Of a stretch of 14,220 bases of DNA, positions 931 to 7,321 are shown piece after piece; the stretch's first letter is position 1, and every line of letters begins with the position of its first letter. The position numbers and the translations under genes were made by a program. The stretch is taken from UHGV virus genome UHGV-0158879; one strand, written 5' to 3'. The stretch is from a virus. Under the pieces are notes generated by a model. The model saw nothing but the letters and a program-made list of their open reading frames with translations. It was not told the DNA's origin and ran no database searches.

Positions 931-3876
931 TTAGTGCTTCCCTTCTATTAAGTCTAACCTAGCTTTTATTCTTTCTATTTCTCTGCGCTGCCATGCCGCC
1001 TCGATATAGAATAAGAGATCAGGTCTGACCCCCCATCTAGATCCTGCTGGCGTTATTTCAACGCGCTCAATGATGTCTTCCATTACCATCACTGGATTAT
1101 CATCCTCATCAACAATGATGCTCCCGTCATTATCAGTCAGCGGCATTTCCCTTTGGCCAGTAATGACGTCATCATATACTGCGGGATAATCGTCATAGCA
1201 AAGAAACGCATAGCGGCATGTTGTGCTTTCTTCTTCCATGAGTCCGTGAGAAATAAGAACATCACGAAGTTGCTGCGCGATTACACCATGATGTATCCTC
1301 GCCCCTTCTTCCCCCTTTATAGCGACAGCGTTCAGCCATTTATAAGCGATATACCTGACGTCACCCCAGGCATCCAGCAATGCTTCGTCAGGAGAGACCG
1401 GCTCTGTCTTTAATGTTCCGTCACTGGTAACCACAGGATTGGAGCCAAGATAAACTGTCGAGAACCTGTTTCCCGGACCACCAAGAGCATTTACATTATC
1501 AAGATAAGGTTTAACATCTCCGTTCTCAAAAAGATGTTCGAGTGCGTTATATACCGCGCGACGTGGAGTACTGCTTCCGGAACCATGCAACGTTATCATT
1601 GCACCATCTGCTGAAGACGTTGTTTCACCGCCGCTAACGATTAATCTCTGAGCGGTAACATCATCAGACGGTACTTTCTTCGCAATAATGGCGTAATTAC
1701 CCTCAAGTTTGACTTCCGCGCGAACTTGTCCTGATGTACCTGCATGGACAGTCAGTGACTGGACGGCAACATCATCTGTGAAATCAACGGGTACAGGAAC
1801 CGTCCTCACGCCTGACGTCGACATAAAAGTAGGAAGCGTTCTGTTAGGAGTGGCTCCGTAGACAAAATCCCTTGAAACAAATTCTTCCTGTTTAATTTTC
1901 ACCCTGAAACAATACAAATCAGCCGGGTGACCATCGTGAACATAAGGATATTTTCTGTTGTTATCCCCTATGCTCCATGGGTTTAGAAAGTCTTCCCCAC
2001 CGAAAATGTAGTACAGCCAGTTGTCTTTGATACAAACTGAACCAACACCAACCGCAGAGTTAACTATTCCGCCCTGATAAATCTGATCAGTAACATTAAC
2101 CCACTCTACATTATCCAGACTCCACTCATTGACGTTAACTCTGGTCATAAATGTTCTTGGATAATTTCCTGCATAACGGTTATCAGGTTCTCCTCCTTCC
2201 CACTCACCAAATGCGCGCTCACTGCCAAAAATAATCAGCTCATCGCCAACTTTGGCAAAAGGAAGGTTTGAGTGATGAACATTATTTGGGAAGCGAAGAG
2301 AATTCCATGATGTACCTAAATCAGAGCTTCTGTGCAATGAACTACCGGGTTGAGTACTTAATGTCCCCCTGGTCGTCAGATACAGAATGCCATCATAATA
2401 TTTTACACATGGCTCAGATGCATTCGCCTCATATTCTACAGGTATGCGTCTGCGAACAAAGCTACCAGGAGAACCGAAAGCATCAGAGAAATAGAGTATC
2501 CCAAGCTCGCGTGGATCAATATCACCATTATGGTAGCCAACAGCAAAACTGTTATCGCTAATCGTCGCAAAACTGTGAATCTCAGTAACAGGAGTGCTTC
2601 CGTCAACAAAAGAAGGAATAGTTCCAAGACTGGTTTTTCTCCATGGTGACGAGTGAAATGATGTACCAAAACTCCAGTATCTACCCTCGTTATTCTGATC
2701 CACATCCTGGGTATTTTGCGTCGTAACTGTAAAAGTATTTTTATCAATAACAGTAGTCACCGTCATATTCCCGGTAACACCTGTAACACCAGAGTTTGAG
2801 AAGTTGACAAAATCACCAGCAAATAATCCGTGATCAGTAATGCGAATATAAGCGACTTGCTGATTTGCTGCTTTCGTTATACCACCATAAACGCGAAGGC
2901 TGCGACTCATTGGGCGATCCCACAACTCTGCAACCTGCAGTTTATTTCCGCTCACGGTCCGCGTCTCAATTACAGCAAAAAGGCGATTTCTGACAACCCC
3001 CATACTCATGCAGTGATAGTTAACTGTGGGATAGTTTTCATGTAAATCTGTAAGCCATTCCGGCGTTGTCCAGGTCTTCCCGTCATCTCCTGAGCGAACC
3101 CATGCAACATGGAGGTTATTTACACCATGGCGGTCTCCAGCCATAAAAGGCGCATAGATGACATTGTCATATACAAACGTTTTATCCTGCGTCCAGGCGT
3201 TGTACCACGGTGTATCTGTAATTTTAAATAACTCTCCCTGGATAAAATCTTCAGAAGCATAAAAAAGAGGCTGACCCGGTATTCTCTCAAATAAAAAACG
3301 AGCATTTTTAAATCGACTGACATCTGGAAGAGTTGATACTTTAAAAGTAAGCCCTCGCCCATCTATCTTTTCACCACCTGTTGCAACAGAAAGTAATTCT
3401 GATAGAGCTGATGTGTCATCATGAACACCATCACCAATAGCCCCCCAACCTCTTACATCATAACTGTCTCTCCATCTTGCTATCTGAAGTTTTGGGTATT
3501 TATTCGCTCCATCTGGGTCTTCTAATTGCTGCCGTAACTGATCAGGATCATACTTCAGCACATTAGGAAAATAGAACTGCTGCGCACCATACGCATCATA
3601 AACAGCCATAGAATGGCCTTGCACGGTAACGAATTTGGCAATCTGTCCGTTATATACCGGATATCCAGCAGCGTTAATGATTATTGGTTGCGAAACAGGA
3701 ATGTGAGAACCGTCTTCGTTCTCTACATAAACCTGAATCTGGTTTTCAGGATTTACCGGGTCAGTGTCAATTTTACCGATATAAATTTTGCCATTGGCTA
3801 CGGCTTTAAAAGAACGCGCCATAGTGAAGAGTTGCGAAGGCATACTCACTACAACATTGGCTGTAATGTCTGTCAT
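931..3876 (-). CDS. Tailspike: P22 gp9-type head-binding N-terminal domain fused to endosialidase-like body
   Basis: 981-aa ORF with GGAG 8 nt upstream of ATG 3876. N-terminus [11 protein letters not shown]...[33 protein letters not shown] matches the P22 tailspike N-terminus as I recall it. Two sialidase Asp-box motifs ([17 protein letters not shown]). The C-terminal ~150 aa resemble the auto-cleaving intramolecular chaperone domain of endosialidases (from memory). Confidence 0.9.
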
Positions 3877-3944
3877 TTAATTTGCTCCAGATACAAGGAA
3901 TCGCCGCAGCATTGCCACAGTGATGCATTATTAATCAAACAAAG

Positions 3945-3959
3945 AGACCACTGTGGTCT
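3945..3959. promoter_or_regulatory. Operator-like palindrome in the mnt/tailspike divergent intergenic region
   Basis: AGACCAC-T-GTGGTCT is a perfect 7-bp-arm inverted repeat; a related CCACAGTG lies at 3915..3922. It overlaps a possible -35 for mnt (a GATAAT -10 candidate at 3980..3985). The style resembles the P22 Mnt operator (GTCCAC..GTGGAC-like, from memory). Confidence 0.45.
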
Positions 3960-4022
3960 TATTGAGGATGCAACCAGCAGATAATAAGATGCCGATCCAC
4001 TCACAAAAGCGAGGCATCAAGA

Positions 4023-4274
4023 ATGGGAAGAGATGACCCGCAATTTAATCTGCGGCTACCTTACGAATTAAAGGAAAAACTAAAACAGCGAGCCAAATCC
4101 AATGGCCGCTCTCTTAATTCAGAATTAGTTCAGATAGTGACTGATGCTGTATCAAAGCCATCCAAAATTTCAGGCTATCGAGACGATGCGGAACGCATCG
4201 CTGATGAGCAGTCAGAGCTTGTTAAGAAGATGGTGTTTGATACGCTGAAGGATTTGTACAAAAAACCCACCTGA
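4023..4274 (+). CDS. mnt: Mnt-type ribbon-helix-helix repressor
   Basis: 83 aa, GAGG 8 nt upstream. The C-terminal two-thirds (NGRS.NSEL.QIV.DA.SKPS...GYR.DAER.ADEQSELVKKMVFDTLKDLYKK) closely matches P22 Mnt as I recall it. N-terminal strand DPQFNLRLP. Confidence 0.9.
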   Translation: MGRDDPQFNLRLPYELKEKLKQRAKSNGRSLNSELVQIVTDAVSKPSKISGYRDDAERIADEQSELVKKMVFDTLKDLYKKPT

Positions 4275-4290
4275 AGGTGGGTTAATTTTT
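4264..4290 (+). terminator. Rho-independent terminator after mnt
   Basis: AACCCACC-tgaa-GGTGGGTT 8-bp stem (4264..4283) followed by AATTTTT. The hairpin spans the mnt stop codon, and the A-run upstream allows bidirectional function. Confidence 0.6.
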
Positions 4291-4373
4291 GCATTTACCT
4301 GGGCCATATTGACTACTTATAAAATGAGATCAATATTTAATCGCCCAATAACGGGTGTATGTTGAGGTATATC

Positions 4374-4553
4374 ATGGCGAAAAAACCAGGTGAAAACACA
4401 GGAAAAAACGGCGGAATATACCAAGAAGTTGGCCCACGCGGCGGTAAGAAAGACAATTTTGCAACCGTCAAGGACAACGAAAGGCTTCCACCAACAACAA
4501 AGCCAGGTCATGGCTGGGTATTGGATAAGCGAACTCCAGACAGCAAAAAGTAA
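4374..4553 (+). CDS. Small conserved hypothetical protein (59 aa), Gly/Lys/Pro-rich
   Basis: ATG 4374 with GAGG 6 nt upstream, double stop TAATAA, terminator immediately downstream. Position and length match the small ORF between sieA and mnt in P22-like phages (from memory). A resemblance to YjzC-like small proteins is unverified. Confidence 0.6.
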   Translation: MAKKPGENTGKNGGIYQEVGPRGGKKDNFATVKDNERLPPTTKPGHGWVLDKRTPDSKK

Positions 4554-4559
4554 TAATCA

Positions 4560-4581
4560 AGCCGGGTCACTCCGGCTTTTT
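4560..4581 (+). terminator. Rho-independent terminator after the 59-aa gene
   Basis: AGCCGG-gtcact-CCGGCT stem followed by TTTTT. The T-run is on the plus strand only. Confidence 0.6.
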
Positions 4582-4932
4582 GATATGTCGCTCGCAGAAC
4601 TCAACAAGCCTGCTCATTAAGTAGCAGTAAGTCTCGTTGGCTCTTCCTGGTTCAACATCAACACCTACCCTTGAGCAGATATCGAATGCCATGTGAGCGC
4701 ACTCATGGGCAATAGTAGATAGTTTGCCATTGAACACGCCTATCACATGCAAAACACCATTCTCGCTACTCATTGTATGAGACGCTCCGTTGGCGTCCGA
4801 GTCATGCACGTCAACGCCAAGTTTTTGATGCAGGCGTTGCCATTCTGGAAAGTCTCTACAAAACACAATTGTACCGCTCTCAAAGAGCGGAACGAGCATC
4901 TTTGGTACGTTTCCAATGTTAACTTTTTTCAT
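4567..4932 (-). CDS. Hypothetical protein with HExxH motif (possible small zinc metallopeptidase-like)
   Basis: 121-aa ORF with AGGA 4 nt upstream of ATG 4932. Contains [11 protein letters not shown] (H-E-x-x-H) followed by a downstream Glu. The function is a guess from the motif alone. Confidence 0.5.
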
Positions 4933-4962
4933 GGTATCCTGCGCAAAACTAAGGAGGTTGGT

Positions 4963-5457
4963 GTGTCTGATTCTATGAGTTACGCTGTGCTAGTTGCCGC
5001 AACTCTATTTCTGGGGATAGGGTTGCAGATTGCGTGGTTCTTTTTTTCTAGTTTTATTAAACGTAAAAGAATTGAATCAAGGATATCTGAGATTTCTATT
5101 GCTATAGGGAAAAATGCTGAAAATCCAGAGAATGAGGCCTGCGCACTGAATTACCTTAAAGAAAAGTTTTCCCCTGAAAAATTTGAAAACAGAATTACTG
5201 ATGCTCTTGGATTGGTAATATCAGTAATTCATATGCCACTAAGTTTGCTGATAACAGTGTGGTACTTCGCCATGATCGCCGGAAGAATATTTGGTTTCAT
5301 GAATATAGAGCCTGTAGTTCTTTGGGTTCCAATGATACTGCAATTGTTGTTAAGCGTTGCTATCTTTATTTTTTCTGTTTTTATAAAAATTGTCTTCGGA
5401 AGATACCCCGGAGAAGCAAAGGGATTTAATAAAGAATTCATAAAAACTATAAAATAA
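4963..5457 (+). CDS. Small inner-membrane protein with 3 predicted TM helices, in the sieA (superinfection exclusion) position
   Basis: AAGGAGG at 4951..4957; start is GTG 4963 or ATG 4975 (the ORF-track start at 4747 overlaps the minus-strand gene and is rejected). Hydrophobic segments [48 protein letters not shown] and [30 protein letters not shown]-rich, antisense to the late genes. SieA assignment is positional only. Confidence 0.6.
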
Positions 5458-5479
5458 ATGCCGTCCTTGGCTTACAGTG

Positions 5480-7321
5480 CTACTGCCGGGTAGCTTCGTT
5501 AACTAAGAGCGGGCGCACGGCAGTAGCCGCCTGATTTAGCGCTCTTTCATAAGCTGGCGTTCCAGCTTTAGTGTTTGCCAGACGTAAGAGCGCATTCCTT
5601 GCTGCTTTGGATTCATACAAGCGCATCATTGCACCGAAACCAGCCTCAAGCCCCATTGATACGCCAAGAGTCGTAGTTGCGCCAATCGTCCTTATCCTGT
5701 TGGCTTGCGATTGCCCCGTCTGAGTTACTACATTTGCGGTGTCTGATCTTGCTGCTTGCTGTAGAACTTCATGAAGAGCATCAAGTTCTTTCATGTGCTT
5801 TCCAGAAAAAATAGTGTTGTAAATTTCACCGCCTGACTGAGATTTCAGCTTATTAACTTCCGTGATGAACTTGGCTGGAGAGTCACCGGCCTTTTCCGCT
5901 ATTTTGCTGACGTAAGCTGCACGCATAGCATCTTTCCCTTTATCATCCAATGCGCTCCAGATTCGTTTCACGTCAGATGGTTTTCTGCTTAATACAACAG
6001 TATTTATAAGTTCAGGACTGGCTTCACTGCTTGCCTTGTTGAGCTTGTTAGCAATGTTTTTATTAAGCACCTTATTATAAACGTTTGCATAATCGGAATT
6101 TGCTTTAAGGTATTTTGCTGCGTCTGAAGCACCGAGGTTTTTGGCAACTGCGTTACGAAGGTCTTTTGACATTGCATTCTCTACCATATTGGTAGCTGCT
6201 TTTGCCTGGTTGGGGAAGACCATGGCATCTCCCTGAACATTAGATCTAAATGCTGTTCTGTGCTGGCGCAAGAGATCAAACGTAACATCCAAATCAGTTG
6301 CAGGGTTTGCTAATTCTTCACGTAGGTTACGCAAGGATGTAAGCAGGTTTTGATTGGCAGAAGTCCCAAGCCGTTCCTGTCTTGCGATCGCTGTATTCAG
6401 AGCATTCATGGTATTTGTGGTATCAACTGCGGCATTACCCATTTTATTGGTGACGTCATTGATAACAGCGCCAGCGGCATCCTTCCGTCCCCTTAACGTG
6501 GTGGTCAGAGATCTCACCACATCATCAGGGTTGTACTCACCAAAACGGTCAAAATAATTGCTTACCAGCTTACTACGCGTTGCATATTGCTCCGCTCGCT
6601 TTGAGCCTGTCCCGAGCAAAGCCCCCTCAGCATCCTGAGTAAGTCCGCGAGTGAAAGCATTTTTCGGCGGGATAACATCAGATGTCATTGGTGTCACGCC
6701 CATCGATTCTGATGTGGCAATTTTCTTTGCCACTTCTGGCGCAATATCACCTTTTATAGCCGTTATTCCACGCCCTATTCCCTTTGCTGCTGCGGAAAGA
6801 ACACCCTGAGCGGCAAGGTTAACTCCGGCATTTTTAGCTGCATTTTGTGCGAAATCACCTTTCTGATTTGCGGCCTCTGCCAGTGATCCAATAGCCATGC
6901 TTCCTGCCGTTCCAACTCCTGGAACTAAATACCCGCCAATTGTTTCTCCAGCTTGAGCGTAGGGGTCTGTCGGTCTGTCTACTGGACGATAAACATCATC
7001 CAAAACCTTGGGGCCACCAAGCCCCTGACTGATTGCATTAATCAGACTTGCGCCGCCCTGTAATACGTCAAATGGTATGTTTACCAGACCACGACCAGCC
7101 TGTTCTGCAATTTGCCCTGCACTTTGACCACCAGTGAGCCAATCGCCAGCTTGTTGCATCAATGATGGTTCTTCCCGTGTTGGTGCATTATTGGCCTGAT
7201 TAACTGTTTGTTGCTGAACAGCCTGACCAGCAAAATACTCATCAATGGCGGTGCCAATATCTTCCGTGCTCGTACCATCAGGGAAGGTAAATGTCTTACC
7301 GTTTGCAGTTACTTTCATCAT
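5480..7321 (-). CDS. Ejection (DNA-transfer) protein, P22 gp16-like
   Basis: 612/613 aa, Ala/Gly/Gln-rich. N-terminus [22 protein letters not shown] as I recall for P22 gp16. ATGATG start overlaps the upstream stop (ATGA), and it lies directly downstream of the gp20-like gene as in P22. Confidence 0.8.

Follow-up and report, generated by a model that had tools for sequence, protein, structure and literature searches.

The window analysed here is a DNA stretch of 14,220 nucleotides (nt), one strand of the virus genome UHGV-0158879. It carries a P22-like prophage whose late operon lies on the - strand. Two divergent genes of this prophage, sieA and hkcC, are the subject of the analysis, together with a third gene, orf59a, that is convergent with hkcC. 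Positions 3700-5600 match the chromosome of E. coli strain EC931 at 100% identity, and positions 3900-5600 share 95.6% DNA identity with the 16-sieA-orf59a-mnt segment of phage P22. Both sieA and hkcC are already catalogued genes.

Genes and signals at the locus

The gene sieA (4963-5457, + strand) encodes the type A superinfection-exclusion protein A, an inner-membrane protein of 164 amino acids (aa) when read from its GTG codon. The gene hkcC (4567-4932) lies on the - strand, which is that of the late operon, and encodes a soluble protein of 121 aa with an HExxH...E motif of the gluzincin type. The third gene, orf59a (4374-4553, + strand), encodes a YjzC-like soluble protein of 59 aa that matches phrog_3202 (E = 1.3e-31); the protein would be 64 aa long if read from an alternative start at 4359. 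On its other side, sieA is convergent with the homologue of gene 16 (5480-7321, - strand), which encodes an ejection or DNA-transfer protein (phrog_770 'DNA transfer protein', E = 2.2e-278) and, among the structural genes of the late strand, is the last one before hkcC.

The GTG start codon of sieA and the ATG start codon of hkcC are separated by exactly 30 nt (4933-4962), which agrees with the 30 base pairs (bp) or so estimated in an earlier sequence-only reading of this DNA. Both ribosome-binding sites (RBSs) fall inside the spacer: AAGGAGG (4952-4958, + strand) is that of sieA, and CAGGA (- strand) that of hkcC. The putative sieA promoter (4902-4932, + strand) lies within the first 31 nt of the hkcC coding sequence. 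Its position follows the RefSeq record of P22, in which the sieA promoter at 13861-13891 coincides with the first 31 nt of the hkcC match; the window DNA is identical there. A simple consensus promoter scan of the window did not score it.

At its other end, hkcC runs into a hairpin terminator of orf59a, called tORF59A (4559-4578, followed by TTTTT on the + strand), with a fold energy of -13.4 kcal/mol on the + strand (z = -3.1) and -12.1 on the - strand. The hairpin covers the last four codons and the stop of hkcC, so the overlap with the terminator of the neighbouring gene that had been noticed earlier is real. The C-terminal KKPE of HkcC is encoded by the complement of the stem and T-run. 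The record of phage HK620 annotates tORF59A as a bidirectional terminator, and in all other contexts of orf59a the hairpin is kept with changed, compensatory stem bases.

The membrane protein is SieA

The gene on the + strand had been described, from the sequence by itself, as an AT-rich gene for a protein with three transmembrane segments, located in the position of sieA. Each part of this description stands, and the gene proves to be sieA itself. Its GC content is 0.345-0.38, against 0.45-0.52 in the flanks, and it lies between the gene 16 homologue and the tailspike gene (931-3876). The encoded protein is identical to P22 SieA in 152 of 164 residues (93%, E = 3e-114), with 12 substitutions, and matches phrog_7745 'SieA-like' (E = 2.8e-106). 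P22 SieA was reportedly treated by Hofer in 1995. A 99%-identical gene in another E. coli genome is named 'superinfection exclusion protein A' by PGAP. Searches of SieA against Pfam, NCBIfam and PADLOC gave no match.

Hydrophobic blocks at about residues 5-32, 78-113 and 112-150 on the Kyte-Doolittle scale point to three transmembrane segments, without a signal peptide. This agrees with the three segments predicted for P22 SieA by TMHMM (PMC10883804). Close to its C-terminus the protein carries FxRYPxEAxxFNK, the motif defined by Leavitt et al. 2024 (PMC10883804). Thus the three hydrophobic segments, the cytoplasmic motif, the position between gene 16 and the tailspike gene, and the upstream promoter and RBS DNA are all as in P22; the difference is that the window copy sits in an E. 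coli prophage with an endosialidase tailspike, whereas P22 is a phage of Salmonella. Judged by sequence, the membrane protein is canonical type A SieA.

The open reading frame (ORF) listed at 4747-5457 is a mechanical, artefactual 5' extension of sieA that overlaps hkcC, and was rejected as the gene. Leavitt et al. (PMC10883804) left the length of SieA open, at 162 or 164 aa. Because 10 alternative ORFs found in the same place in other phages begin at the same GTG, the codon at 4963 is taken as the true start, which supports the 164-aa form; an ATG at 4975 is less likely.

The function of SieA has been worked out in P22. When preceded by no more than 85 bp of upstream DNA, and without hkcC, the gene confers full exclusion, to 1e-8 or better; the protein blocks DNA injection by P22-like phages, also in E. 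coli K1 against CUS-3; and escape mutations against it map to the ejection proteins gp16 and gp20 (PMC10883804). By analogy, resting on the 93% identity, the SieA of the window would be an inner-membrane protein, made in the lysogen from its own promoter, that acts alone as shown for P22. It would block the injection of P22-like DNA by interfering with the gp16/gp20 conduit, and would need no other phage gene to do so.

A slot for exchangeable cargo

Phages that share hkcC do not always share sieA. In HK620, for example, an identical hkcC, spacer, RBS and GTG are followed by a different ORF, hkcB. Loci with an hkcC at least 95% identical to that of the window were compared (window 4933-4965 and eleven fetched loci); 11 variants were aligned and 10 alternative cargo proteins were scanned. 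In 10 of the 11 aligned variants, homology extends from hkcC through the spacer to the GTG and ends at the next base. The spacer is nearly identical up to the GTG in P22, HK620 and 10 other cargo variants.

Facing a 99%-identical hkcC, the slot holds at least 12 unrelated ORF families. Besides SieA these are a lipoprotein of 161 aa; HkcB, a protein of 109 aa with a transmembrane segment and a coiled coil; a second protein of the same build and length (109 aa); a secreted protein of 129 aa; four proteins that contain hydrophobic segments (62, 75, 106 and 149 aa); two whose N-termini resemble signal peptides (68 and 99 aa); and one soluble protein of 140 aa. An N-terminal hydrophobic segment, a lipobox or a signal-peptide-like start is found in 11 of the 12 families. 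Nine of the 10 alternative cargo proteins fall into separate PHROGs of unknown function, and the 149-aa protein matched none.

The position of sieA is a cargo slot. What is conserved is a block made of the 5' end of hkcC with the putative sieA promoter, the 30-nt spacer, the RBS and the GTG. Since homology stops after the GTG, this block can be regarded as a fixed expression platform, with sieA as one of many exchangeable cargos.

hkcC is a genuine gene

Copies of hkcC with 99% identity are found in P22, in HK620 and in dozens of phages of Salmonella and E. coli. The P22 and HK620 copies have the same length and the same overlap with tORF59A, and show no substantive difference from that of the window. 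The HK620 record annotates hkcC as 'unknown', and several P22 records carry no annotation for it. In the literature, hkcC and 59a are the two unknown genes of the P22 'ant moron' (Villafane et al. 2008, PMC2629481).

HkcC matches phrog_1365 (E = 1.7e-39). In an exhaustive HMMER search, 554 cluster representatives match the family at E <= 1e-3, nearly all of them stand-alone proteins of 110-140 aa. The full ORF is kept by homologues at 39-63% identity in unrelated contexts that have no sieA slot. Nonsynonymous differences (pN 0.24-0.45) are far fewer than synonymous ones (pS 0.62-0.98), and synonymous sites are saturated. hkcC is therefore a genuine, selected protein-coding gene of a large phage family. 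The sequence-only reading had allowed for a canonical SieA next to a spurious HExxH ORF; the first half of this is correct, and the second is not, as the ORF is conserved.

A zinc-site motif in thermolysin register

The earlier description of a 121-aa protein with HECAH and a downstream Glu is borne out family-wide. In HkcC the motif consists of H76-E77-C78-A79-H80 plus E100. In 121 diverse relatives only H76, E77, H80 and E100 are invariant; G49, G90, Y104 and L105 are at least 90% conserved, and N99, just before E100, is 75% conserved in the family. In the larger set of 177 relatives HExxH is kept in 170, and the seven exceptions include truncated or frameshifted fragments and one HKAAH.

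Among PDB sequences, the best phmmer matches of HkcC are thermolysin and the Bacillus neutral protease. Residues 66-113 of HkcC align with thermolysin 132-179 over 48 residues and without gaps, so that thermolysin H142, E143, H146, N165 and E166 fall on H76, E77, H80, N99 and E100. At the level of aligned residues, the HExxH and the Glu at +20 of HkcC thus match the thermolysin zinc site. The match gains weight because residues at exactly those positions are invariant across the family.

An AlphaFold model built on a deep alignment reached a predicted local distance difference test (pLDDT) score of 93.2. It contains strands at 11-13 and 21-25, a helix at 28-38, strands at 49-56 and 59-66, and helices at 71-88 and 100-116; HExxH lies on helix 71-88, and E100 starts helix 100-116. 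This is the order of secondary structure that we would expect of a minimal zincin. The likeness to thermolysin-type gluzincins (MEROPS M4) extends to the HExxH on a helix, the Glu 20 residues after the second His, the G-x-x-N-E with its Glu on the next helix, and a beta-sheet followed by two helices. Unlike thermolysin, HkcC is only 121 aa long and is without the C-terminal domain, and the position of thermolysin Asp170 is a conserved Tyr (Y104).

If the site is functional, H76, H80 and E100 would bind zinc and E77 would serve as the general base. On the strength of this motif and the model, we lean towards HkcC being an active zinc peptidase of the cytoplasm.

Several known families were compared with HkcC. 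SprT-like, Spartan and Wss1 proteins resemble it in being small HExxH domains that are common in phages. Their third zinc ligand is a His shortly after HExxH, as Spartan and Wss1 structures show. HkcC has no conserved His downstream of H80, and its candidate ligand is a Glu. Weak matches to the Pfam SprT-like family (PF10263) occur in 18 of the 121 relatives, the best at 1e-4, while a Pfam scan of 10 family members gave no SprT-like match and a comparison of the family profile with E. coli SprT (YggI) by hhalign was negative. Membership in the SprT-like family was rejected for want of a PF10263 match and of a conserved downstream third His.

A search of viral predicted structures (BFVD) with Foldseek returned 24 small phage proteins of the same fold, with template-modelling scores (TM-scores) up to 0.83 and mostly unnamed. 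A few of these neighbours are named SprT-like or metalloprotease; the two named SprT-like have TM-scores of 0.49-0.71. Matches to IrrE-named proteins are weak (probability 0.44-0.77). HkcC was also rejected as an ImmA/IrrE protein (Peptidase_M78), as it has no such Pfam or NCBIfam match and its neighbours are SieA and Orf59a and not a helix-turn-helix repressor. Among solved zincins, no significant match in sequence or structure was found. HkcC is therefore called gluzincin-motif and zincin-like, and not a member of a curated family. A second metal site was considered and dropped: C25, C78, C86 and C103 are invariant only in the close clade, and C103 alone is common family-wide.

Contexts and expression of hkcC relatives

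Relatives of hkcC are found in many places. A paralogous clade with 38-42% identity, which includes Orf-129 of ST64T and L, gene 70 of epsilon34 and genes of mEp lambdoid phages such as mEp044, sits where the lysis genes meet the terminase genes. Closer relatives are found between tail tube or chaperone genes and the tape-measure gene in siphovirus prophages (Rosenbergiella, Klebsiella oxytoca and a metagenome). In Serratia prophages they lie between Q and holin; one is beside an Acb2/Tad1-like gene, and an N4-like phage of Pseudomonas carries another. The gene points the same way as its flanking genes, which are mostly late, in P22-like, siphovirus, lambdoid and Acb2-adjacent contexts, and it also follows the direction of the late genes where it lies between Q and holin.

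Late expression of hkcC as an accessory gene is suggested by this shared direction together with three further observations. In P22-like phages, the DNA more than 30 nt upstream of hkcC is non-homologous cargo. A terminator scan found no - strand terminator between the gene 16 homologue and hkcC. Finally, transcription from PLate passes through the ant moron and into the tailspike gene (PMC2629481). Accordingly, hkcC would have no conserved promoter of its own and would be transcribed when RNA polymerase reads on past gene 16 in the antiterminated late operon. HkcC would then act late in lytic growth, as a dispensable accessory function.

Genes for Acb2/Tad1 hairpin-domain proteins (anti-CBASS or anti-Thoeris sponges) lie 0.2-3 kb from the pair of hkcC and orf59a in four loci, namely one Logan metagenome-assembly contig and three Serratia prophages. 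The positions are 972-1259 in locus L109, 63-344 in L115, 610-891 in L116 and 1349-1591 in L117.

orf59a and its link to hkcC

Orf59a resembles the YjzC family (PF14168) in its length of about 59 aa and in a nearly full-length alignment (profile positions 8-54 of 55), and differs in that its score of 19.4 bits stays below the cut-off of 25. Five of eight Orf59a relatives match YjzC, and UniRef names relatives 'YjzC family protein'. A promoter scan found a candidate sigma-70 promoter at 4309-4337 (+ strand), with TTGACT and AATATT 17 nt apart. Conserved versions of TTGAC-N17-AATATT and of the leader precede orf59a in siphovirus, Xenorhabdus and Proteus loci, and the gene is under strong purifying selection. 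On the basis of the window (4309-4578) and twelve fetched loci, orf59a is a self-contained moron: it brings its own promoter and terminator, and lies on the strand opposite to hkcC.

The two genes often occur together. An hkcC relative is present in 107 fetched loci, of which many are redundant; these loci carry SieA in 17 cases, HkcB in 9 and Orf59a in 86. The only neighbour of hkcC that recurs is orf59a. In seven other loci the gene convergent with the hkcC relative encodes a protein 52-81% identical to the Orf59a of the window. Every homologue of the hkcC clade examined in a new context has an Orf59a homologue on the other strand, 13-30 nt past the hkcC stop.

The reverse does not hold. The Orf59a family is the larger one, with 830 matches, and it also occurs alone on non-phage elements. 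Among 41 viral loci retrieved with divergent Orf59a queries, 38 have no HkcC, including loci whose Orf59a is 83-92% identical to a copy that has HkcC beside it. Some P22-like loci have hkcC without orf59a. In HK620, orf59a ('HkcD', 2880-3059 of the fetched locus) has an in-frame stop at codon 18, next to an intact hkcC. The notion of self-immunity, in which HkcC neutralises the Orf59a of its own phage, was largely dropped in view of the 38 loci. The simplest reading of the linkage is that it mainly reflects shared history, while a one-way dependence of HkcC on Orf59a is conceivable at a lower probability.

Neighbours, module or cassette

Probably, the sieA and hkcC genes of the ant moron of this P22-like prophage are adjacent and functionally independent, and HkcC is, as we infer, an accessory zinc peptidase of the late stage. 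The sequence-only reading had proposed that the pair could be an exclusion or immunity module. In such a module the protease might process, regulate or antagonise SieA, and the arrangement is indeed tight: only 30 nt separate the start codons, hkcC contains the putative sieA promoter, and the pair is kept in P22 and about 17 sampled loci. This proposal is very improbable and has been largely refuted, because sieA with 85 bp excludes without hkcC (PMC10883804), 11 other cargo genes, among the at least 12 slot ORFs, face this same hkcC elsewhere, HK620 has hkcC and no sieA, and relatives of hkcC occur in phages and slots without sieA, so that SieA is present in only 17 of the 107 loci. Expression would presumably also be opposite, sieA being expected in the lysogen and hkcC late. 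The view that hkcC is not a gene, its ORF being preserved solely on account of the sieA promoter and the orf59a terminator in the same DNA, can point to regulatory elements over both ends of the ORF and to the P22 records that leave it out. It is already refuted by the conservation data and has virtually no chance of being right, given homologues at 39-63% identity that keep the full ORF where no sieA slot exists, the excess of pS over pN, residues of catalytic type that are invariant in a family of 554 representatives, and a confidently predicted fold.

Two other explanations accept hkcC as a gene and look for its partner or target elsewhere. HkcC and Orf59a might form a functional two-gene cassette, in which Orf59a, expressed in the lysogen, is an inhibitor or substrate of the late peptidase, and convergent transcription through the shared terminator makes expression of the two mutually exclusive. 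This would fit the tail-to-tail orf59a that accompanies all hkcC-clade homologues (39-100% identity) in new contexts on at least six backbones, the co-varying pairwise identities of the two proteins (r = 0.78), the KKPE encoded by the complement of the terminator, and the conserved promoter of orf59a. The link is one-way, however, with 38 of 41 viral Orf59a loci lacking HkcC and Orf59a standing alone on non-phage elements; HK620 keeps hkcC beside an orf59a with an in-frame stop, some P22-like loci have no orf59a, the Orf-129 paralogue clade never has it, and co-divergence is equally expected from co-inheritance. We consider the cassette rather unlikely. A bolder form of it, in which hkcC and orf59a are a mobile switch of two mutually acting genes and the sieA promoter-RBS-GTG block is a docking site for a dozen or more envelope proteins of exclusion or conversion, is given little credence. 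Alternatively, HkcC could be an anti-defence or host-takeover protease that cuts a protein of the host or of a resident prophage late in infection, with Orf59a irrelevant. The gene belongs to the accessory set at moron hotspots in late operons, it is near Acb2/Tad1-like anti-defence genes in two contexts, and its family is widespread in lytic and temperate phages, including N4-like ones. The argument is purely one of context, though; no defence or anti-defence model is matched, and late timing would be unusual, as anti-defence factors are mostly early. This explanation too seems unlikely.

Several points weigh against the view of two independent genes with HkcC as a late zinc peptidase. The E-values of the alignment with thermolysin, 0.09-0.66, are not statistically significant, and the HkcC of the window has no match in Pfam (including PF10263), NCBIfam or PADLOC. 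A literature search on hkcC, YjzC, and phage SprT-like or metalloprotease anti-defence proteins found no functional data. Late transcription of hkcC is itself deduced from context, and in the window prophage the late genes, hkcC among them, may be silent because the late promoter region appears to be deleted. The strong linkage of hkcC to orf59a and the correlation of r = 0.78 between HkcC and Orf59a identities could also reflect a functional coupling to which too little weight has been given.

The surrounding prophage

The window also contains further ejection genes, terminase genes and lysis genes. Next to orf59a lies mnt (4023-4274, + strand), which encodes a repressor of the Arc/Mnt family (Pfam Arc 2.8e-22, Repressor_Mnt 2.2e-18). 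It is followed directly by the tailspike gene; unlike in P22, arc, ant and sar are absent from positions 3877-4022, and the Mnt repressor has no antirepressor gene to control here. The idea that HkcC is an ImmA analogue that cleaves Mnt or another repressor was rejected, as HK620 keeps hkcC although mnt and ant are both reduced to remnants there. PADLOC-DB v2 component models gave no match for HkcC, SieA or Orf59a.

The tailspike (931-3876) has a P22-type head-binding domain, an endosialidase N-terminal domain, a beta-propeller, a beta-barrel, a tail-spike domain and a C-terminal S74 chaperone. Because it is a full endosialidase, the phage is K1-capsule-specific and CUS-3-like. Positions 696-774 hold a perfect tandem repeat of a heptanucleotide, GAGTCTT x 11.3 (read as AAGACTC from the - strand). 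The repeat is situated upstream of an ORF for a hexapeptide-repeat acetyltransferase (50-385, - strand), which is in another reading frame. We take the repeat to resemble the contingency locus of the phase-variable capsule O-acetyltransferase gene neuO of the K1 phage CUS-3, in which repeat numbers not divisible by three would presumably mean the OFF phase.

About 100 nt upstream of the start of the lysozyme gene (13428), at about 13530, the sequence jumps into the early-left region of abc2 (anti-RecBCD; abc2 at 13589-13882, + strand). The holin gene, gene 23, and the nin, replication and immunity genes expected between the lysozyme gene and abc2 are absent. This suggests that the prophage is internally deleted and defective. 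Despite the deletion, sieA, orf59a and mnt appear to keep their own promoters.

An ORF of 174 aa (10552-11076, + strand), flanked by the small-terminase gene and by a KilA-N gene (11785-12315, - strand), is antisense to the late operon. It has no Pfam match and may be another moron, in the lysis-terminase slot; in ST64T this slot holds the hkcC paralogue Orf-129.

What the locus means for P22-like phages

The finding as first posed changes little, as the locus is the sieA region of P22, here found in a prophage of E. coli. The new points are the family-wide motif of HkcC in thermolysin register, the linkage of hkcC and orf59a, and the precise junction of cargo exchange at the start of sieA. 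The HkcC family emerges as a large set of phage proteins of about 120 aa, with a predicted zinc site in thermolysin register, that occupy accessory slots in the late operons of unrelated phages. The alternative ORFs of the sieA slot, at least 11, of which the ten scanned have no known function, make up a list of candidates for new exclusion proteins.

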